A stretch of DNA of 64,000 nt from NCBI GenBank assembly GCA_965215185.1, contig OZ244034.1:2759844-2823843 (forward strand). The letters run 5' to 3'. Under the pieces are notes generated by a model, which did not search any database, was not told the origin of the DNA, and worked only from the letters and a program-made list of their open reading frames with translations. Made by a program: the position numbers and the translations under genes. Of this stretch, positions 47,121-56,784 are shown piece by piece; the first letter of the stretch is position 1, and each line of letters begins with the position of its first letter. The stretch is from Acidimicrobiia bacterium. GTDB lineage: Bacteria > Actinomycetota > Acidimicrobiia > Spongiisociales > ZC4RG35.

Positions 47121-47483
47121 TTAGTCCCAGCCGAGCTGATGGAGGCGCTTTTCAGAGAAACCCAGGTAGTGGCCTAGTTCGTGCAGGAGGGTGCGGCGGA
47201 TCTCCTTTTCGGTCTCGGAGCGAGAAAGCCCCAACTCGAGATGGGCCAGACGATATACGCGAATCTCGTCGGGGAGGACTCCCCAATAATCGGCCGCTCG
47301 ATCCGGCAGCGACACCCCCACATATTCACCCAACAGCATTTCCCGGTCCTCGCCCTGGCACTCCTCAAGCGGTGGCGAATCCATCGCCACCACCAACACA
47401 TTGTCCATTATGGAGGTGATCCATTCGGGTAGCTCGGTAAGGGTCCGGCCTATCACTTCCTCGAATTCTTCGGTGCGCATCAT
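47121..47483 (-). CDS. Minimal zincin-like metallopeptidase
   Basis: LLGEYVG, LPDEIRVYR and HELGHYLG (HExxH); coupled to the Rid-family gene. Confidence 0.88.
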   Translation of the reverse strand: MMRTEEFEEVIGRTLTELPEWITSIMDNVLVVAMDSPPLEECQGEDREMLLGEYVGVSLPDRAADYWGVLPDEIRVYRLAHLELGLSRSETEKEIRRTLLHELGHYLGFSEKRLHQLGWD

Positions 47484-47884
47484 CCTCCGTGCAGAGCCAG
47501 CACGGCCTCTATTTCCACCACAGCTCGTGGGTCGGCCAGTCCGCCGATTACCAAGAGAGTGCTAGCCGGATAATCGCCATGTGGATACCAGTCTGAAAAG
47601 ACGCGGTCTCGCCCGCGGTAGAAACCCTCCTGGGCTCCCTCGGTCACATAGGTGCGAAGGCAGGCGATGTCAGAAGGTGAAGCTCCCACCGAGCCCATCA
47701 GCACGGCGAGATTGGCGAAGGCGTCACAGGTTTGGGAACCGGGGTCCTCGGCCATCGTTGCGTCCTGGCGACGCCCGGTTTGGCCCGACAGCCAGGCCAG
47801 GGAGGCGCCGGCCTTCGCCAGGGAGACCAGCGAATAGCGGCCGGTGGGGTGGCTTACACCCGGCGGATTGCTTCTTGACAACAT
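47480..47884 (-). CDS. Rid (YjgF/YER057c/UK114) family protein
   Basis: YS, LSGQ, NL..L...G and PASTL...LADP...VEIEA motifs. Confidence 0.88.
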   Translation of the reverse strand: MLSRSNPPGVSHPTGRYSLVSLAKAGASLAWLSGQTGRRQDATMAEDPGSQTCDAFANLAVLMGSVGASPSDIACLRTYVTEGAQEGFYRGRDRVFSDWYPHGDYPASTLLVIGGLADPRAVVEIEAVLALHGG

Positions 47885-47982: not shown

Positions 47983-49011
47983 ATGACGACCCGCACTCGA
48001 ACTGCCACCAGTCACTATGAGGTACAGAAGAAACGCCGCTCTGACGAGTTGGAGCATCGCCTGCATGTGGTGCGGGGGTCGGAAGTGGTTATGCACCAGA
48101 CTCCCCGGGGAATCGACCGCGGGGTGTTGGTGGGGGCCGATGGTGACCGACCCAGCCTGGTGCTCGACGCTCACCGTCACGGAATTGAGCCGGGTGCGGT
48201 TTCAACGATCCATCGTCACTCGTGGGATGCCATCATGTTTGTCACCTCCGGCCGGGGATGGACCGAAGTCAATGGCCGTAGATACGACTGGCGAGCATGG
48301 GATACGGTGTTTCTCCCGGCCTGGGCTTGGCATCGTCACGGAAACGAGAGCGATTCACCGGCCACCTATGTCACTTTCGGCTCCGAGCCCTTGGCCGAAT
48401 TGGTGGGGATGGCCATCATCGAGGAGGGCGGAGATGTTTCCTTCGACGAGCTTCCCCCGCCCCCGGCGGTAGCTTCCCCCGGGATGGGCTCGGACCCCTA
48501 CACCCGACGGATTCAGCGTTTGGCCCATCGCCAGCAGGCCTTTTCGGAGACTCGCATCATTACCGCCTTCGATGACATCAACTTCCGGGTGACTCCCCGC
48601 GGTGCCCGCAGCGGCTTTCTGATTGACCGGAGCATCGGGTACCGCACCGGCGGATTGACCGCGGTGATGCATCAATTGGCTCCCGGTCTTTACCAGTCCC
48701 GGCACCGTCACGGAGGAGAAGCCTGGCTGTACTGCACGACGGGTCAGGGTTACAGCGTAATCGACGGGGAACGCTACGACTGGGGCCCGGGGGACATGGC
48801 GGTAGTGGACCATTGGGCCTGGCATCAGCATTTCAACGCCTCCGATTCGGAGATTGCAGCCATTATCCGGGTACATAATGTCGACAGTCTCTACATGGGG
48901 ATGCGGGCTCTGCTCGATCCCCTGCCGCTTTTTGAGGAACCCGAGAAGCTGGACTCCCCCGACCTGAGCGGAATGGAGTGGCCCCCTCCCGACGCGGGCA
49001 GACCCGAGTGA
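47983..49011 (+). CDS. Bicupin protein, gentisate-1,2-dioxygenase-like metal motifs
   Basis: Two cupin domains: HRHSWDA...PAWAWHRH and HRHGGEA...DHWAWHQH. Confidence 0.82.
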   Translation: MTTRTRTATSHYEVQKKRRSDELEHRLHVVRGSEVVMHQTPRGIDRGVLVGADGDRPSLVLDAHRHGIEPGAVSTIHRHSWDAIMFVTSGRGWTEVNGRRYDWRAWDTVFLPAWAWHRHGNESDSPATYVTFGSEPLAELVGMAIIEEGGDVSFDELPPPPAVASPGMGSDPYTRRIQRLAHRQQAFSETRIITAFDDINFRVTPRGARSGFLIDRSIGYRTGGLTAVMHQLAPGLYQSRHRHGGEAWLYCTTGQGYSVIDGERYDWGPGDMAVVDHWAWHQHFNASDSEIAAIIRVHNVDSLYMGMRALLDPLPLFEEPEKLDSPDLSGMEWPPPDAGRPE

Positions 49012-49913
49012 ACAGCCGCGGCGTCGCCCGGCAGGAAAACATCCGCCAGGATCGCTACGGGTTTCTGCGGTGGAGGGTCCTCCCACAGCCGGGCTGGGAG
49101 CAGTGGTGGGATCGCATCGTGGTTCCCGAGGGGATCAAACAACGGCTGGATGATTATTCTCGCCAGTCGATCCTCTTGCGGGCAAAATTCACGCAGGTAG
49201 GGATGCCACTGCATGGACTGGTTCTTCTGTATGGGCCGCCTGGAACCGGCAAGACTTCGCTGGCCAAGGGTTTGGCGAACCGTTTGGGGCAGCATTTCGG
49301 TGAGATCATCTTCGCGGAGGTGGACGCCCACGCCATGCCTTCGCAGATGTTGGGCGAAAGCCAGCGCAACGTGGCCAATCTGCTGGAAAAATCCATCCCC
49401 GAACTGGCTGCCAAGGAGATGCCGGTGGTGGTGCTGATCGACGAAGTCACCTCAATGGCGGTCAACCGGCAGATGGCAATGGGCGGTACCGACCCGGTGG
49501 ACGTTATCCGCGCCACCGACGCCGCTCTCCAGGGGTTGGACCGATTGGCCTACGATCATCCCAATGTCCTGTTGATTGCCACCTCCAATTTAGAGGGCGC
49601 TATCGACGAGGCGGTGATGAGCAGGACCGATCTGGTAGTGGAGGTACCGGTTCCCGACCTGCAGGCCCGTACCGAGATCCTCGCTGACAGTCTCTCCGAA
49701 CTTGGCTCGGTGCTCAACTCTCAGTTCTCGGGTGTGAATGTAAATCGGAGTGAACTCCATGAATTCGCAGCCGAGTTAAATGGGCTGTCCGGTCGTCGAA
49801 TACGCAAACTGGTCTTTGAGGCGGTGTTGGCAGTGCAGTCCCATGAGGGTGCTCTGGGTGTTGGTCATCTCCGGTTGGCGGCCGCCCGTTCCACTTCCCT
49901 GGTGAGGATGTAA
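49008..49913 (+). CDS. Pch2/TRIP13 (CBASS Cap6)-like AAA+ ATPase
   Basis: WDRIVVP, PLHGLVLLYGPPGTGKTSLAKGLA, VLIDEV, DPVDVIRATDAALQGLD, HPNVLLIATSN, DEAVMSRTD and GLSGRRIRK. GTGA overlap with the bicupin stop. Confidence 0.82.
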   Translation: MNSRGVARQENIRQDRYGFLRWRVLPQPGWEQWWDRIVVPEGIKQRLDDYSRQSILLRAKFTQVGMPLHGLVLLYGPPGTGKTSLAKGLANRLGQHFGEIIFAEVDAHAMPSQMLGESQRNVANLLEKSIPELAAKEMPVVVLIDEVTSMAVNRQMAMGGTDPVDVIRATDAALQGLDRLAYDHPNVLLIATSNLEGAIDEAVMSRTDLVVEVPVPDLQARTEILADSLSELGSVLNSQFSGVNVNRSELHEFAAELNGLSGRRIRKLVFEAVLAVQSHEGALGVGHLRLAAARSTSLVRM

Positions 49914-51205
49914 TGACAGCGCTGGTTACCGAGATACTCAGCCGTATAGACGAGTCGCGAGAAGATCTGGCCGAATTGGCCCTTCGTTTGGGCAACACTT
50001 ACGGCCCATTGGGTAATGAAGAACCAACCGCGCGGGCGGCGCATGAGTGGTATCTGGAAAACAGGATGGAAAGCCACTTGGTTCCCATGATCGAAGGCAG
50101 GGCTAGCACTGTGGGAAGGGTGCGGGGGTCGGGTGGGGGAAAGTCGCTGATATACAACGCCCATCTCGACACCGAGGCGTCTGGACCTGACTACGACCTG
50201 TTGATGGCGGTGCCAGATCCCAACCGGGTGGGTGCTCGACGAGAAGGCGACAAAATCTTTGGGCACACTGTTCAAAATGACCGAGGGTGCATGTCCGTTC
50301 AGATGATTGCCGGACGGGCGCTGCAGGATGCTGGTGCTCCCTTGCGGGGTGATCTTCTGCTCAAGTCGGCTGCGGGAGAGACCGGATCGTCACCAGTGGA
50401 CGAATACCAGGGAGCCCGTTACGAGTCGAAGGGATTCGGCACCAACTGGCTGCTGGAGCATGGGTACGGTGCCGATTACGCAGTGATCGCCGAGACCACT
50501 GACTTTTCCGCATCCTGGGTGCAGTGCGGCGCCGCCTATTTCAAGATAACCGTCCGGGGCCGGAATATGTACACCCCTCGCTTGGAGCGGCCATCGAAGC
50601 TCTCCGAGCATCCCAACGCCATCGTGCGAGCGGGCGTTCTGATCGGGGCCCTGGAGCAGTGGGCGGTCGAATATGAAGCATCGCGGGCTATCGAGACCCC
50701 TTGCGGCACCATGCGACCCAAGTCGCAGATAGGAGCGATGAGAGGCGGAATACCGTGGCGGCCCAACCGGTCCTCGACCTATGCGGCCCTATATATGGAT
50801 GTGCGTACCCGACCGGGGGACCTTATCACGGAGATCACCGCCTCTCTACAGCAGGCGATAGCCGACACCGGCTTGGATGCTGAATTGCGACTGATAATGT
50901 TCAAACCCGGTTATGCCGCCTCCTCCGAGAAGATCAGGCCCCTATTGGGCGCCATCGGCGACGCTCATCGCCATGTCCGGGGAGAGGAGATGCCGGAGCG
51001 GGCCGAATCGGCGGTGGTCTCGATGTGGCGGGACACCAATGTGTACAACCGGGTCGGCATCCCTGCCCTCACCTTCGGTCCGAGCCGGGGCCGGGCGGCG
51101 GTGCAGGGGACCGGTTACATGCATTTGGACAACATGTTGGAGGGGGCCAAGATCTACGCTCTCACTGCCCTATCCATCTGCGCCGCGGTGTCGCCCTCCT
51201 CGTGA
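49913..51205 (+). CDS. M20/ArgE-DapE family metallohydrolase, atypical ligand set
   Basis: YNAHLDTE, NDRG, AAGETG and VIAET motifs plus a dimerisation domain; TAATG overlap with the ATPase. Confidence 0.8.
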   Translation: MTALVTEILSRIDESREDLAELALRLGNTYGPLGNEEPTARAAHEWYLENRMESHLVPMIEGRASTVGRVRGSGGGKSLIYNAHLDTEASGPDYDLLMAVPDPNRVGARREGDKIFGHTVQNDRGCMSVQMIAGRALQDAGAPLRGDLLLKSAAGETGSSPVDEYQGARYESKGFGTNWLLEHGYGADYAVIAETTDFSASWVQCGAAYFKITVRGRNMYTPRLERPSKLSEHPNAIVRAGVLIGALEQWAVEYEASRAIETPCGTMRPKSQIGAMRGGIPWRPNRSSTYAALYMDVRTRPGDLITEITASLQQAIADTGLDAELRLIMFKPGYAASSEKIRPLLGAIGDAHRHVRGEEMPERAESAVVSMWRDTNVYNRVGIPALTFGPSRGRAAVQGTGYMHLDNMLEGAKIYALTALSICAAVSPSS

Positions 51206-52392
51206 CGCTACCCCGTCCGGTTGGATCACTTCTTCGGTACGAGTGGATGGCGCATCTGGGGGGAATGGCGGTAATAACCGGCGTTCAACTGATCTCTCCC
51301 GCCCTCCCGGCCCTAGCCGAACGCTTCGCCCTGTCGGAGTCGGAAGTCTCTTTGGTGATCAGCGTCTATCTGATCCCAGCAACCTTGGCTTCGGTGCCGG
51401 CGGGGTTTTTGGCTGACCGGTTCGGAAGACGGTGGGTGTTCGGGACGGGCCTGTGTCTGTTCGGTGTGGCGGGGGTGCTCCTGCCTGTGGTGGCGCAAGA
51501 GTCCTACGGGGCTCTACTGGTGATCAGGTTCGTGCAGGGATTGGGATTCGCTCCTGCTTTTCCTCTCACCATCACCATTCTGGGTGATCTCTACAAGGGT
51601 CCGAAATTGGTGGGCGCACTAGGGCGGCGGTCGGTATTGATGTCGGTGGCAGACGGCGGATACCCCATCCTGGGAGGGATCTTGGTGGGGCTTTCGTGGT
51701 TGGCGCCTTGGTATCTGCAGGCCGTGGCTCTTCCGATCGGATTGATGGTGCTGTTCAGTTTTCGGGATTGGGTGCCGCTGGGCACTCAGGGTGGCATGGG
51801 CGGTTTGCGCTGGTTGTGGCGCTCGGTGCACTCCAAAGGCATCCTGTCTCTCCACTATGTGAGTTTTCTCCGATTCTTCGCCAAATTCGCTTTGCTCTCG
51901 TACCTTCCGCTTCTGCTGGTGATATCCCGGGGCTTGACAGCCGCCCAAGCCGGTTTGATATTGGGCACGGCCGCCTTGTCTGGGACCTTGGGAGCGGCCA
52001 TGAGCGGATGGTTGGCCCGCATTGGCCCCGCATCTCGGTGGGTCATTGCGGGAATGGTCATGCAGGGTTTGGGATTGGTGATAATGGTTTTTGTGGCCCA
52101 GATCTGGATGCTGATGACGGTGGCAGTGTTTTACGGGCTGGCCGACGGCGTCCTCGGGACGTTTGTCAACGCTTATCTGGCGTCGGCGACCGACCCCGAG
52201 CACCGGGCCAGTCTGGTAGCCGCCAATGGCGCCATAAAGAATTTCGGAAAGCTCTTGGCGCCCCTCCTGTTAGGGGTGCTGGTGCTGGTGGTGCCGCTCT
52301 CGGTGGGGTTCACCGCAGTGGCGGCTGTGTTGGTGATCTCGGCGCCTGCCGCGGCGCCGTTGCGGGCCTACGATTCCCGGATTTCAAGATAG
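51202..52392 (+). CDS. MFS transporter
   Basis: About 12 hydrophobic segments, GFLADRFGRR motif A and IRFVQGLG; GTGA overlap with the M20 gene. Confidence 0.9.
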   Translation: MTLPRPVGSLLRYEWMAHLGGMAVITGVQLISPALPALAERFALSESEVSLVISVYLIPATLASVPAGFLADRFGRRWVFGTGLCLFGVAGVLLPVVAQESYGALLVIRFVQGLGFAPAFPLTITILGDLYKGPKLVGALGRRSVLMSVADGGYPILGGILVGLSWLAPWYLQAVALPIGLMVLFSFRDWVPLGTQGGMGGLRWLWRSVHSKGILSLHYVSFLRFFAKFALLSYLPLLLVISRGLTAAQAGLILGTAALSGTLGAAMSGWLARIGPASRWVIAGMVMQGLGLVIMVFVAQIWMLMTVAVFYGLADGVLGTFVNAYLASATDPEHRASLVAANGAIKNFGKLLAPLLLGVLVLVVPLSVGFTAVAAVLVISAPAAAPLRAYDSRISR

Positions 52393-52436: not shown

Positions 52437-52512
52437 CCAATTTGATCCAGCCTTGGGCTTCGGCCTAATAGTTTGACAGAGAAAATAAGCAAACAAGTGA
52501 AGGAGATTCAAA

Positions 52513-52590
52513 GTGCGACAAAGATCTTGGTTATCGGCCTTGGCCGTGCTCATGGCCTTCGCGTTGGTGGCGGCTGCCTGCGGCAGGTGA
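52513..52590 (+). pseudogene. Orphan lipoprotein signal peptide (start of a deleted lipoprotein gene)
   Basis: AAGGAG SD, then GTG start, MRQRSWLSALAVLMAFALVAAACG, then AGG TGA. Confidence 0.72.
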
Positions 52591-52775
52591 CAATCGTTGC
52601 CGAGAGAGGTGACGGAGTGGGGTCGTACGGCGCCAAAGGCAGGGGAGAGGGAACTCTCAACCCGATTGGAGGAGCCACTGCTGCGGCTGTGGCCCGGGCG
52701 ATAGGCCGTTGGCCCGATAGATTGCCGCTCACCCCCGAGCGGGTGTGGCGCCTGATGAGAAATGGTGACAGCTAA
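52584..52775 (+). pseudogene. C-terminal remnant of a xanthine dehydrogenase-family molybdopterin-binding subunit
   Basis: GDGVGSYGAKGRGEGTLNP...AVARAIG...LPLTPERVW matches the GP(F/Y)GAKGxGE...P(I/L)TPERV terminus of this family. Confidence 0.78.
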
Positions 52776-53467
52776 TGGATTTAAGCCGTTTGGAGCCGTG
52801 GCTAACAGAGGCGCGCCAACGTTTTCGCACAGCCGAGGATATGGTCACCGGGGTTCTCAGGGAAGCGATCATCACTGGCGTGCTCAGCCCCGGTGAGCGT
52901 CTTCCTCAAGATCAACTCGCCGAATTGTTGATGGTGAGCCGTATGCCGATCAGAGCGGCGCTGCGTCAGTTGGACTCCGAGGGCTTGGTGGTCAACATCC
53001 CCCATCGGGGCGCCACAGTGCGGGAGTTATCGCCCACCGAGTTACGGGAGTTGTACGAACTGAGAGTGGTGGTGGAGTGCTTTGCCGTCCGACGCTCGGT
53101 GGTGGCCGCCTTCCCCTCCGACCTGCTCGAATTGGCGGAGTTGGCCGAAAGCTGTGAGAGCGCCGAGGAGGGGGAGGAGTGGATTCAGCAAAGATGCGCC
53201 TTCTACCGCCGCCTGTACGCCATCGGGAACGGCGTCAGGGTGGTGGACACGATCATGACCCTTCGAGCGGAAGTCAGCCGTTATCTGCTGGAAAAGAGAT
53301 TCTGTCCGGGGTGGCATCGTGAACTACTGGAGAATCTGGCCACGGCGGATACGGAGGGAGCCGCCCGGTTCTTGGAAGACCACCTGATGGAGGTCCTGGA
53401 GTCCATGGAAGAAGAGATATCGGTGGCGGACCGCTGGAACAAGGCGATTGACGGGACCAAGAAATGA
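52775..53467 (+). CDS. GntR family (FCD) transcriptional regulator
   Basis: LREAIITG.L.PGERL..LAELL.VSRMPIR.AL..L..EGLV...PHRG HTH motif. Confidence 0.92.
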   Translation: MDLSRLEPWLTEARQRFRTAEDMVTGVLREAIITGVLSPGERLPQDQLAELLMVSRMPIRAALRQLDSEGLVVNIPHRGATVRELSPTELRELYELRVVVECFAVRRSVVAAFPSDLLELAELAESCESAEEGEEWIQQRCAFYRRLYAIGNGVRVVDTIMTLRAEVSRYLLEKRFCPGWHRELLENLATADTEGAARFLEDHLMEVLESMEEEISVADRWNKAIDGTKK

Positions 53468-54415
53468 AAGAGGAGCAGGTCGTCTTCTACAGGGGCGGGG
53501 AGCGGGTGGTTGGGGATCTGTATCTTCCTGAGGCCGGAAAGGGTGAACCTCGCCCGGCGGTGGTGCAGGGGACCGGGCTGGATGGGTTTGCGCACCGCCC
53601 GGCTCTATCGTCCCTATCACGAGGCTTTCCTGGCGGCGGGAATCGTGGTCCTCGTCATCGACTACCGAGGGTGCGGGGACTCCGATGGCGACCCGCTGGG
53701 GTTCTCGCCCCGCCGACAACTGGAGGATCTCACCAACGCCGTGACCTATCTCACCACCCGACCCGAGGTGGACCCCGACCGAATCGGGGTGTTTGGATCA
53801 GGGGGGACGGGGGGCGGCAACGCCGTATGTCTGGCAGCCACCGACCAGCGGGTGCGGTGTGCGGTGGCCCAGGTGCCCGTCTCCGACGGCCGGGATTGGC
53901 TGCGCAGGATGCGACCCGCGTATGAGTGGTATGAGTTCCTGGAGCTACTGAAGGCAGACCGGGTTCAAAGAGTCACCACCGGCCAGGGGGATCTGGTGCA
54001 CTCCCAGCAAATCATGATCCCCGCTCCCGAGCGGAGGGCCACCACCATCAAAAAGGACGTGGATTCCCGGGTTCCCACCCTGCTGCCGTTGGCTGCGGCG
54101 GAAGAGATTATGGCCTATAGACCTATCGACGTGGTGGACCGGATAACTCCGCGACCACTTCTGATAGTGGCGGTGGAAGACGATCCGGTCACTCCCACCC
54201 AGCACGCGGTGGATCTGTACGAACGGGCGGGTCCGCCCAAGAAACTGATCATTCAGCGGCACACCACGCACTACGCCGCCTATCGACAGTATGGGAAGAC
54301 GATCATTCCCCAGATGGTGGATTGGTTTCGCATACATTTATCGACAACCCGGATACAGGCTGTTGAAGCGACCACAGGTAAAGAGAAGCACATGGTTATC
54401 AAGGAGATCGCATGA
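53464..54415 (+). pseudogene. Alpha/beta hydrolase (S15/CocE-like N-terminus) with a +1 frameshift near 53568-53572
   Basis: Frame 1 MKEEQVVFY...GDLYLP...PAVVQG continues in the next frame as PGWMGL...IDYRGCGDS...DPDRIG...EDDPVTP...HY. One extra base at CAGGGGACCG. Confidence 0.75.
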
Positions 54416-55803
54416 ACATCACCAGAGTTGTCAGAGGAGCCTCGGTGGTAAGGGACGGGTCTTTGACCAAGATGGACATTCTGGTGGGGGGTGAGCGAAT
54501 CGTCGGTCTTACCTTGCCGGATACCATCACGCCCCCTTCCTCGGCCGAGGTGATAGAGGTCGATGGGCTGTGGGCCCTCCCTGGAGGGGTAGACGTGCAT
54601 GTCCACCTCCGGGAGCCAGGCTACACCCATAAAGAGGATATCAAAACCGCCACCGCCGCGGCGGCAGCGGGCGGATACACCACCGTGTTCGGGATGCCCA
54701 ATGTGAAGCCGCCCACCATGACCGCCCCCGATCTGTGGGCTGCCTTGGCTCTGTACGACCAAAAGAGCCTGGTCGACTACAACCACAACCCTGCCGCCAA
54801 GCAAAGAGAAGAATTAGCGGAGATGGCCGAGATGGGGATCGCCGCCTATAAAATCTACATGGTGGCGGACACCGGGCGGTCCTATCCGCACCCGGCCGCC
54901 ATCGGGGTTCATGACCACGGCCACCTCCTGGAGGCGATGCAGACCGTGGCCGCCACCGGGTTGCCCCTGATGGTGCATCCTCATGACCAGCGTATCGAAG
55001 AAGTGGTGGAGCAGCGTTTCTGGGAGAAGGGGGATCGGTCTCCGGAGGCGTATGCCCGTACCCTGATGACCGGGGACGGGATCCTGTGGGACACCGCCAC
55101 CTCCTTGTTACTCCGTATGGCGGAGGCCACCGGCTGTCGGTTGCACCTCGTGCATACCACCACCAGCCGTCAGGTGGAGATGATCCGGGCGGCCCGAAAG
55201 CGGGGGGTGAAGGTTACCTGTGAGGCAAATCACTGGACATTGTTCCTGGCTACCTGGGAGTTGGTGCAGGAACTGGGGCCCTATGTTCTCTCCTATTGGG
55301 TGCCCGAGCACCATCAGCAGGCCGTTTGGGAAGCCTTGGCGGACGGCTCGATCGACATGGTCGCCTCCGATCACGCTCCCCATACCAGGGCTGAAAAGGA
55401 TGTGGGGTATCAGGACATGTGGGCCGCTCACACCGGTTCCCCCGGCGTTCAATATCAGCTGCCGCTGCTGATAGATGCCTATCACCAGGGCCGTATCTCC
55501 CTCGCTCGGCTGGTGGACGCGGTAGCCGCTGCTCCCGCCCGTCTGTTCGGCCTCTCCCGAAAGGGCCGGATCACCCCGGGCGCCGACGCCGACCTGACCC
55601 TGATCGATCCCAACCGGGAATGGACCATCACCAACGATTCAGTCCTCTCCAAGATCGACTGGACTCCCTACCACGGACGGACCATCCGGGGAGCTGTGGA
55701 GCGCACCATGGTGCGGGGAACCGACGTATTTGTTGGTGGAGAAATAGTGGGGGAGCCCGGCCACGGCCGCCAAGCGGTTCCCGATTCGATGGAGAGGAAC
55801 TAA
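54412..55803 (+). CDS. Cyclic amidohydrolase (dihydroorotase/allantoinase/hydantoinase family)
   Basis: DVHVHLREPG, AAAAGGYTT, KIYM, HPHD, HLVH and SDHAPH motifs. Confidence 0.9.
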   Translation: MNITRVVRGASVVRDGSLTKMDILVGGERIVGLTLPDTITPPSSAEVIEVDGLWALPGGVDVHVHLREPGYTHKEDIKTATAAAAAGGYTTVFGMPNVKPPTMTAPDLWAALALYDQKSLVDYNHNPAAKQREELAEMAEMGIAAYKIYMVADTGRSYPHPAAIGVHDHGHLLEAMQTVAATGLPLMVHPHDQRIEEVVEQRFWEKGDRSPEAYARTLMTGDGILWDTATSLLLRMAEATGCRLHLVHTTTSRQVEMIRAARKRGVKVTCEANHWTLFLATWELVQELGPYVLSYWVPEHHQQAVWEALADGSIDMVASDHAPHTRAEKDVGYQDMWAAHTGSPGVQYQLPLLIDAYHQGRISLARLVDAVAAAPARLFGLSRKGRITPGADADLTLIDPNREWTITNDSVLSKIDWTPYHGRTIRGAVERTMVRGTDVFVGGEIVGEPGHGRQAVPDSMERN

Positions 55804-55806
55804 ATC

Positions 55807-56784
55807 ATGGAGTATGGACTGCTGTTACCCCATTTCGGTCATCACACCGACCGGGACATGCTCTGGCAAGGGGCAAGAAGAGCGGAGGAACTGGGTTTCG
55901 ATTCGCTTTGGGTGAGGGACCACTTGATGTTCGAGCCGCACGGGGAATTCGAAGCGCCCAACCGGAACTTCCTGGAACCCTTGACGGTGTTGACCTCGGT
56001 GGGATCGGTCACCTCCTCGGTCAAGCTTGGGACTGCCACGCTAATCCCCTACCGCCATCCGCTGGTGGTGGCTGCCACCTTGACTTCCATCGATTCGGTG
56101 GTGGGGGGTGGCCGGCTGATCACCGCCTGGGGCGCTGGCGGTTACGACTTTGAGTTCGAGGCGGTGGGGATGGGGGGAATATTCCGTCCCGAGCTAGTGG
56201 AGTCCAACGCCCGCATTCTGGCCAAGGTGCTTTCGGAGGATCACGTCAACTACGAAGACAAGCATTACCGGTTCGACAACGTGACCATCCGCCCGCGTCC
56301 TGCCGCTCCCATCCCCTTCTGGTACGGAGGCGCGACGCCTGCCTCGGCCCGTCGGGCCGCCACCTATTGCAGCGGATGGATGCCGGGACGGATAACCCTT
56401 CCCACCATCGCCAAGCGGGTAACCCAGATGAGCAGGCTCACCGAAGAAAACGGGCGCCCCATACCGACTGTGGCTTGCATTCCACCAACCAGCATCGGCG
56501 AGACCACCGAAGAGGCGATGGAGGGCACCTCACTGGAAGGCTTGCTCGCTTGGGCCAACTCCCGCGGCAAATGGTGGGTGAAGCCTGCATCGGGGCGGTT
56601 CGAGACTGCTGAGGACATAGAGGGATCACTGATCGCCGGTACCCCTGACGAGGTGGTAGCTGCCACCGTCAAGTTTGCCGACGTAGGCGTGGATCACCTG
56701 GTCTACGACCTGCGGCTCTCCTTTGACCGGTGGCTTCAGAGTATCGAACTACTGGGCAAGGAGGTCCTCCCCCGCCTGAGGTAG
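55807..56784 (+). CDS. LLM-class flavin/F420-dependent oxidoreductase
   Basis: AEELGFDSLWVRDH, LEPLTVL, VKLGT, GGRLI and PIPFWYGG motifs. Confidence 0.9.
   Translation: MEYGLLLPHFGHHTDRDMLWQGARRAEELGFDSLWVRDHLMFEPHGEFEAPNRNFLEPLTVLTSVGSVTSSVKLGTATLIPYRHPLVVAATLTSIDSVVGGGRLITAWGAGGYDFEFEAVGMGGIFRPELVESNARILAKVLSEDHVNYEDKHYRFDNVTIRPRPAAPIPFWYGGATPASARRAATYCSGWMPGRITLPTIAKRVTQMSRLTEENGRPIPTVACIPPTSIGETTEEAMEGTSLEGLLAWANSRGKWWVKPASGRFETAEDIEGSLIAGTPDEVVAATVKFADVGVDHLVYDLRLSFDRWLQSIELLGKEVLPRLR

Follow-up and report, generated by a model that had tools for sequence, protein, structure and literature searches.

An AAA+ ATPase of the Trip13/Pch2 family is encoded directly behind a bicupin in a 64,000-nucleotide stretch of an Acidimicrobiia genome (contig OZ244034.1; the whole stretch is called the window below). 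The explanation that best fits the data as a whole is that this ATPase acts outside cyclic oligonucleotide-based antiphage signalling systems (CBASS) and has the bicupin as its client, to which we assign a probability of about 0.62. Taken alone, a role outside CBASS is highly probable; that the ATPase specifically reactivates the bicupin is a tentative proposal. The three genes concerned lie on the forward strand: the bicupin (P0001, 342 residues) at 47983-49011, the ATPase (P0002, 301 residues, GTG start) at 49008-49913 and an M20-like protein (P0003, 430 residues) at 49913-51205. The gene caller predicted the same ATPase with an identical start (P0004, 301 residues). An earlier note on this DNA had described the ATPase gene as locked between its neighbours by stop/start overlaps, and the open reading frame (ORF) coordinates agree, with a 4-base overlap at the bicupin/ATPase junction (GTGA) and a 1-base overlap at the ATPase/M20 junction (TAATG).

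The ATPase is a true member of the Trip13/Pch2 family. In PADLOC it matched the TRIP13 model PDLC00915 over residues 27-288 (E 3.3e-84, 281 bits), while the second TRIP13 model, PDLC00914, gave 57 bits and the next-best family, IetA, 88 bits. The best single-domain sequence matches in the PDB scored 109 bits (C. elegans PCH-2) and about 103 bits (human TRIP13), with each Cdc48 domain at about 60 bits. The AlphaFold model of the ATPase has a predicted local distance difference test score (pLDDT) of 82 and a predicted template modelling score of 0.81. When it was submitted to Foldseek, ranks 1-13 were all PCH-2/TRIP13 structures (E 1e-17 to 1e-13); FtsH, Vps4 and p97 appeared at lower ranks, and the Trip13 of E. 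coli MS115-1 (6p8v) at rank 18. Pfam recognized only the generic AAA domain, with the TRIP13 lid domain at E 0.005, and in NCBIfam the proteasome, IteA and Cdc48 models ranked first, all far under their cut-offs. Identity as a generic Cdc48 or proteasomal AAA protein was ruled out by the PADLOC result, the PDB bit scores, Foldseek and the tree presented below. Profile, structure search and trees thus agree with the family membership claimed in the earlier note, and every motif it quoted is present in the P0002 translation (MPLHGLVLLYGPPGTGKTSLAKGLA, LIDEV, DPVDVIRATDAALQGLDRLAYDHPNVLLIATSN, IDEAVMSRTD, GLSGRRIRK).

The ATPase is also an intact motor under purifying selection. The Walker A lysine (K92), the Walker B pair (D155/E156), the sensor-1 asparagine (N204), the arginine finger (R216) and the sensor-2 arginines (R273/R276; P0002 numbering) are invariant in 22 homologues. 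So are the TRIP13-type pore-loop-2 segment GG.DPVDV.RAT and the SGR..RK sensor 2, which align with CBASS and eukaryote-type sequences. The ratio of nonsynonymous to synonymous substitution rates (dN/dS) was 0.08-0.15 for the ATPase and 0.05-0.09 for the bicupin, both rough values with dS near saturation. Pore loop 1, PSQMLGESQRN (49338-49370, forward strand), is essentially invariant in the bicupin-linked clade; the same columns read SKWFSESGK in eukaryotic TRIP13 and SSAMGKTQR in CBASS Trip13. The protein has no N-terminal adaptor domain, and its N-terminus carries a motif of the clade's own, R[QE]DRYGFLRW..LP..W..WWDRI, where CBASS Trip13 has LP+GI..I..LPDP.L..LWDSI.

Two trees were built with Cdc48-D2-like rows as the outgroup, a quick one of 112 rows and a careful one of 65 rows, and their topologies agree. 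In the careful tree the bicupin-linked ATPases form one clade (support 94/90), whose sister clade contains all six verified CBASS Trip13 proteins (100/98), with a joint node at 100/97. Proteins of 396-448 residues with the eukaryotic SKWFSESGK pore loop form a clade outside the joint node. This phylogeny, which the earlier note had proposed, places the ATPase apart from the Cdc48 and proteasomal AAA proteins and as sister to CBASS Trip13. A search of 1.84 billion representative proteins returned 149 that reach E 1e-30, and at 50% identity the group of the window ATPase amounts to two or three clusters only. The best-scoring representatives (P0124, P0126, P0127, P0129-P0133) include giant proteins of 1278-2124 residues that carry four to six AAA modules in tandem, and each module shares about 30-33% identity with the window ATPase.

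The relation to CBASS was examined from the side of the homologues as well. A tblastn search of plasmids with the ATPase recovered bacterial homologues at 39-43% identity, and all six that were opened (L027, L028, L029, L030, L031 and L033) lie in type III CBASS operons with the gene order Trip13, HORMA, HORMA, CD-NTase, effector. PADLOC detected HORMA1, HORMA2 and the cyclase in these operons at E 1e-30 to 1e-145 (cyclase E 9e-145). Given these verified partners and the 474 bits that the bona fide Trip13 of L027 scores against PDLC00915, this profile is the Trip13 model of two-HORMA CBASS. The earlier note had named, as an outcome that would speak against it, close homologues sitting mostly in CBASS loci; the bicupin-linked ATPases instead form a separate clade that is always found beside a cupin. 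A Haloarcula halophila plasmid (L032, 3950-5736) encodes an archaeal Trip13-like ATPase (PADLOC TRIP13, 205 bits) followed by a 260-residue protein without a PADLOC match. The annotation nearby shows no HORMA or cyclase, and this locus may be another non-CBASS context for the Trip13 family.

Around the bicupin-linked ATPases, CBASS components were absent. PADLOC run on 62 window ORFs returned the TRIP13 match only and no HORMA, CD-NTase or CBASS effector, in line with what the earlier note had stated for the 64 kb. Run on 87 ORFs of five diverse related loci, covering 10 kb on each side of the pair, it returned five TRIP13 matches; HORMA proteins, cyclases and CBASS effectors were absent there, as they are from the precomputed Pfam lists of L001-L003 and L034-L036. 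The same hidden Markov models served as a positive control, since they detect the genuine HORMA1, HORMA2 and cyclase at the E values given above. Within the window and the five loci, we found none of the components that define type III CBASS (a CD-NTase, a HORMA protein of the Cap7/Cap8 type, and an effector activated by cyclic nucleotides), nor the HORMA client encoded alongside that is expected of the Trip13 family.

The constant neighbour of the ATPase is the bicupin. Loci were collected from the ATPase side in two complete Acidimicrobiia contigs and 22 loci of a species-representative genome collection. L003 duplicates L014 and L006 duplicates L001, and L004, a short Logan contig with an unidentifiable partial upstream ORF, was left out of the pairing counts. 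The resulting 29 distinct testable loci comprise 23 found from the ATPase, three of nine further loci that carry the bicupin tail, and three found from the bicupin. In all 29, and in the window, the gene immediately before the ATPase encodes a bicupin of this one family, and the pairing persists where ATPase identity is as low as 47%. Of the 26 loci in which both genes are available, 22 have the ATPase start inside the end of the bicupin gene, with an overlap of 4 or 8 bases. The loci are mostly from Acidimicrobiia, together with one labelled Chloroflexi, one Verrucomicrobiales, one Streptosporangiales and one 'Patescibacteria'. Searching from the bicupin side gave 120 clusters at 55% identity or higher, and the three loci taken from it (a metagenome-assembled genome labelled Patescibacteria, a Streptosporangiales metagenome-assembled genome and one other) all have an AAA gene directly downstream.

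Pairwise distances among the ATPases and among the bicupins are correlated (r = 0.96; 0 of 2000 permutations as high). In the Verrucomicrobiales pair both proteins have the same Acidimicrobiia nearest neighbour, indicating that the pair moves as a unit. The M20-like gene behaves differently from the bicupin: it follows the ATPase in most loci, but L017, L020 and L035 have none next to the pair, and in L034 and L036 it lies at a displaced position. The apparent triad is therefore a cupin-ATPase pair with a frequent M20 add-on, so that of the conserved cupin-ATPase-M20 clade suggested earlier the pair stood and the third member did not. Proteins of the clade form more than 120 clusters at 90% identity and are common in uncultured Acidimicrobiia of marine, freshwater and soil origin and in their relatives. 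A plasmid search with the bicupin found no homologue above 30% identity, and hence no cultured plasmid host.

The N-terminal tail of the bicupin (MTTRTRTATSHYEVQKKRR, 47983-48039, forward strand) carries a Thr at every second residue and continues as S-H-Y-x-V-Q-K-x-R-R. The window protein starts M-T-T-R-T-R-T-A-T-S-H-Y-E-V-Q-K-K-R-R, and most others M-T-E-T-R-T-T-T-S-H-Y-E-V-Q-K-K-R-R. Few parts of the bicupin are as conserved as this tail, with T5, T7, T9, S10, H11 and Y12 invariant in the orthologue alignment. When 83 gene-called homologues were anchored on HY.VQ, Thr was found at position -6 in 80 and at -4 in 79, whereas Ser or Thr occupied -8 in 58 and -1 in all 83. Similar ladders open the HORMA2 proteins of the sister-clade CBASS operons (MTTVAVNTYTHSVTYV, MSTSTSTTTYTRTHTATH and MSATFTSTYSRTHTAKYV). 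It has been reported that Pch2 pore loops read a two-residue Ser/Thr periodicity, that Ser/Thr at alternate positions is conserved, and that a HORMA protein without its N-terminus is not acted on by Pch2 (Ye et al., bioRxiv 10.1101/694695). By analogy, the bicupin tail is likely to be a handle for the ATPase pore.

The ladder is rare by chance. All six frames of the collected loci were scanned for starts with four alternate Ser/Thr residues from residue 2 or 3, and 41 of 13,578 candidate starts were positive. Nineteen of the positives are bicupins (including two alternative starts of L026), and another three belong to CBASS HORMA2 genes, L029 contributing two alternative starts. The background is therefore about 0.14% of candidate starts. 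A paralogue control was provided by the second bicupin of L020 and L026, which has no such ATPase behind it and lacks both the Thr ladder and the WP..GRP end that closes the ATPase-linked bicupins. The latter motif belongs to a conserved C-terminal tail identified by alignment (LFEEP.KLD.PD...WP...GRP., 48928-49008, forward strand), and WP..GRP forms the C-terminal end in 103 of 110 full-length homologues. The window bicupin itself lacks four residues (YW[RK]xx) after the N-terminal helix that are present in all 21 aligned orthologues. This in-frame deletion lies at about 48055-48060 (bicupin residues 25-26), near the conserved N-terminal tail.

As an enzyme, the bicupin resembles gentisate and 5-aminosalicylate 1,2-dioxygenases only distantly. 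Pfam Cupin_2 matched it twice (E 2.7e-28), and PDB gentisate dioxygenases matched at E 1e-18 to 1e-10. Against NCBIfam it scored 70 bits with TIGR02272 (cut-off 442) and 81 bits with NF049978 (cut-off 650), so that it falls far under the cut-offs of the MabB and gentisate-dioxygenase models and does not qualify as an equivalog of either. An HRH...H metal motif is invariant in both barrels, and H77/H79/H117 and H241/H243/H281/H283 are invariant in 14 orthologues. The M20-like protein P0003 had no Pfam match. It aligned colinearly with 5-nitroanthranilate aminohydrolase NaaA (PDB 5k8m; E 1.3e-90), residues 5-424 against chain residues 7-422, and by this match it is classified as an NaaA-like hydrolase of the M20 fold.

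Cupins trap their metal at folding, and Rubisco activases thread the terminal tail of the large subunit. We propose that the ATPase hexamer would grip the Thr ladder at the bicupin N-terminus as Pch2 pore loops do on HORMA N-termini, and that ATP hydrolysis would pull this tail and cause partial unfolding or disassembly of the bicupin. Such pulling could reset a bicupin trapped by an oxidised or wrong metal, by a tightly bound inhibitor or product, or in a dead-end oligomer or complex; this purpose is suggested because of the analogy with Rubisco activases and the kinetic metal trapping in cupins. After the reset the pathway would continue, with the NaaA-like aminohydrolase acting and then the bicupin performing a ring-opening or related step. 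That the ATPase engages the tail, and that remodelling ends in reactivation, maturation or inactivation, is what we infer from these comparisons. In its strongest form, which we regard as possible but doubtful, the proposal makes the Trip13-family hexamer the first known ATP-driven unfoldase 'activase' of a cupin metalloenzyme, one that threads a portable Ser/Thr-ladder tag by the recognition principle used on HORMA proteins and opens the barrel, so that a ligand trapped there, or a metal that is oxidised or wrong, can leave.

Several observations weigh against the bicupin being a client that the ATPase reactivates through its tail. Pore loop 1 carries M-L here and W-F in eukaryotic TRIP13, and the position preceding RAT in the pore-loop-2 region, a His in two-HORMA CBASS Trip13, is occupied by I, M, A, L or S in the window clade; the pore reading code therefore cannot be identical. 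The Thr-rich N-terminus could be a target of a Ser/Thr kinase instead. The AlphaFold model of the bicupin, made with 14 close orthologues, reached a pLDDT of 49, which is too poor to judge exposure of the tail, and the bicupin scores far under the cut-offs of the dioxygenase models. The absence of HORMA and CD-NTase genes covers only the 64-kb window and five loci. Finally, Trip13 in CBASS and in eukaryotes is a negative regulator that dismantles active complexes, so by analogy an activase is not the sole reading. Maturation and a CBASS-like negative regulation are live alternatives.

The ATPase might serve the bicupin only once, during maturation, by assisting its folding around the correct metal or the assembly of its oligomer, rather than repairing the mature protein. 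Its translational coupling directly behind the bicupin would suit such a role, as would the trapping of metal at folding and the general knowledge that AAA+ proteins of the MoxR or CoxD type serve metal-centre maturation. Motors of the Trip13 family, however, act on folded proteins via a free terminal tail (10.1101/694695), and we consider maturation unlikely on balance, although the present data separate it from repair in neither direction. In the manner of Trip13 on HORMA:CD-NTase, the ATPase could alternatively dismantle a complex of the bicupin with the NaaA-like hydrolase or another enzyme of the cluster, or act on the NaaA-like protein itself, and so regulate negatively or through turnover. 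Most loci show start/stop coupling between the ATPase and the NaaA-like gene, and in CBASS the CD-NTase is an adaptor atop the hexamer while Pch2 inactivates the complex (10.1101/694695). Yet the pair does without an adjoining NaaA-like gene in the five loci named above, and the NaaA-like N-terminus (MTALVTEILSRID) has no Ser/Thr ladder, which makes this a rather improbable account.

The client might still be a HORMA protein whose gene lies in another part of the genome, alone or together with a CD-NTase gene, the place of the ATPase in this operon being incidental. The scope of the HORMA and CD-NTase scans leaves room for it, and the ATPase is about 42% identical to real CBASS Trip13. It is nevertheless hard to reconcile with the strict pairing with a bicupin down to 47% ATPase identity and across phyla, the separation of the ATPase clade from the CBASS clade, the lack of any HORMA or cyclase gene within 10 kb on either side in five loci and in the 64-kb window, and a housekeeping setting in place of a defence island; we judge it very unlikely. 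The view of the ATPase as a relic in decay after the loss of a CBASS, or as a functionless chance neighbour, has in its favour the absence of CBASS partners only. The invariance of all catalytic residues, the dN/dS of 0.08-0.15, and the synteny and overlaps kept in all 29 testable loci argue so strongly the other way that this explanation can practically be discarded. The reading that takes the bicupin as the client of a non-CBASS motor is the one we retain. Two parts of the earlier interpretation, the Trip13/Pch2 family and the non-CBASS neighbourhood, carry over, and it is refined in that the bicupin is the conserved partner and the M20 protein an NaaA-like add-on. Of the refuting outcomes named in the earlier note that could be examined, none was observed.

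Among known systems, the closest is Cap6 of two-HORMA type III CBASS. It shares with the window ATPase a length of about 300 residues, a single AAA+ module without an N-terminal adaptor, 39-43% identity, the catalytic motifs, the.PVD..RAT[DE]A core of pore loop 2 and the SGR..RK sensor 2; the two belong to sister clades, and the presumed client of each begins with a Ser/Thr ladder. It differs in that the window ATPase has no HORMA, CD-NTase or effector nearby and stands behind a bicupin in a catabolic operon, and in that the window clade has its own PSQMLGESQRN and R[QE]DRYGFLRW motifs, no His before RAT, and 281 instead of 474 bits against the Trip13 model. Eukaryotic TRIP13/PCH-2 (4xgu, 5vq9, 6f0x) gave the best structural matches and the best single-domain PDB sequence matches to the ATPase, and to remodel a client it pulls on the disordered N-terminus (10.1101/694695). 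In contrast to the window protein, it has an N-terminal domain of about 100 residues that serves its adaptor, p31comet; it also reads W-F in pore loop 1, acts on HORMA clients and falls in a separate clade.

The naa pathway of Bradyrhizobium sp. JS329 offers the nearest metabolic parallel. Its NaaA is colinear with the M20-like protein (E 1e-90), and a cupin ring-cleavage-type enzyme adjoins. This enzyme, NaaB (5-nitrosalicylate 1,2-dioxygenase), is a monocupin (PMC10306065) that matches the bicupin weakly (8ch4, E 4e-7), whereas here a bicupin with two metal motifs is accompanied by an ATPase. The papers found on the naa pathway mention no ATPase.

Rubisco activase, CbbX, EutA and the diol dehydratase reactivase are functional analogues only, each a dedicated ATPase beside a metabolic enzyme that it is thought to reset. 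Their sequence kinship with the window ATPase is no closer than the AAA+ fold, and reactivation in the present case is an analogy. We know of no activase of a cupin enzyme. The ethanolamine ammonia-lyase reactivase belongs to the EutA family, and a protein of that family (PF06277, E 6.7e-85) directly follows the divergent second bicupin of L020 (354 residues, about 26% identical, no Thr ladder), both genes lying within L020:2241-4778. In L026 (26-1036) the same divergent bicupin precedes an ORF of about 490 residues with a similar start, and some homologues of this bicupin carry the NCBI name 'ethanolamine ammonia lyase-activating protein'. A EutA-like partner is absent in L037 and L038, where the divergent bicupin stands alone in a similar cluster of molybdenum hydroxylase, monooxygenase and hydrolase genes. 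A general theme of bicupin plus ATPase was therefore not adopted, and the EutA pairing, not being universal, is a weak hint only.

To our knowledge, every described TRIP13/Pch2 ATPase is dedicated to HORMA-domain proteins, in the spindle checkpoint, meiosis, shieldin or bacterial CBASS. Our literature search linked TRIP13/Pch2 neither to cupins or gentisate dioxygenase nor to orphan non-CBASS contexts, and it found no description of a HORMA-less Trip13 clade or of an AAA+ partner of a cupin enzyme. The motor family is thus known, while the client and the context are new. If the proposal holds, the TRIP13 family would not be tied to HORMA clients and its client range would be wider than thought, and the Ser/Thr ladder would be a transferable address tag for a TRIP13-type motor. 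The pair would then provide a simple bacterial two-protein system for studying how a pore reads such a ladder, and a new class among the few enzyme activases and reactivases. There is also a consequence for annotation: defence-system finders that use TRIP13 models will flag bicupin-linked ATPases although they lie outside CBASS.

Downstream of the NaaA-like gene, on the same strand, lies a major facilitator superfamily (MFS) transporter gene (51247-52392, ATG at 51247; Pfam MFS_1 E 6.9e-48), which is kept in this position in relatives and likely encodes the substrate importer of the cluster. Pfam identified a GntR/FCD regulator (52775-53467), an alpha/beta hydrolase (53510-54415), an amidohydrolase (54412-55803) and a luciferase-like monooxygenase (55807-56784), all on the forward strand, and the hydrolase-amidohydrolase-monooxygenase block accompanies the bicupin-ATPase pair even in distant loci. 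A RidA-family gene (47480-47884, reverse strand; Pfam Ribonuc_L-PSP E 3e-10) is divergent from the operon. The clusters of relatives additionally contain a CoxSML-type molybdenum hydroxylase with CoxG, TctABC and an isochorismatase. This gene content, with the molybdenum hydroxylase and isochorismatase of relatives, is consistent with catabolism of an amino-aromatic or N-heterocyclic acid, and suggests that the substrate of the cluster is of this kind. The rest of the window is housekeeping in character, with cytochrome oxidase, glutamate synthase, SUF and aromatic amino-acid genes.

A scan for promoters and terminators gave no signal over background. In one public metatranscriptome, two short contigs matched the window at 98-99% identity, at 49574-49785 in the ATPase gene and at 50237-50520 in the NaaA-like gene. 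They are a weak sign that a close relative expresses both genes, with DNA carry-over also possible, and are too little to demonstrate an operon transcript. The window is without the TctCAB and CoxG/M/S/L genes that close relatives carry 3' of the MFS gene. At 52473-52775 (forward strand) an ORF of 100 codons is 60-75% identical over about 60 residues to the very end of the CoxL-like large subunit of the molybdenum hydroxylase of related loci (about 760 residues), and it appears to have been left behind when about 8 kb were deleted. On the other side of the operon, the RidA gene and a Zincin_1 gene (PF06262) together span 47121-47884 on the reverse strand, divergent from the bicupin; the position of RidA is kept in many related loci and that of Zincin_1 in the closest relatives only.

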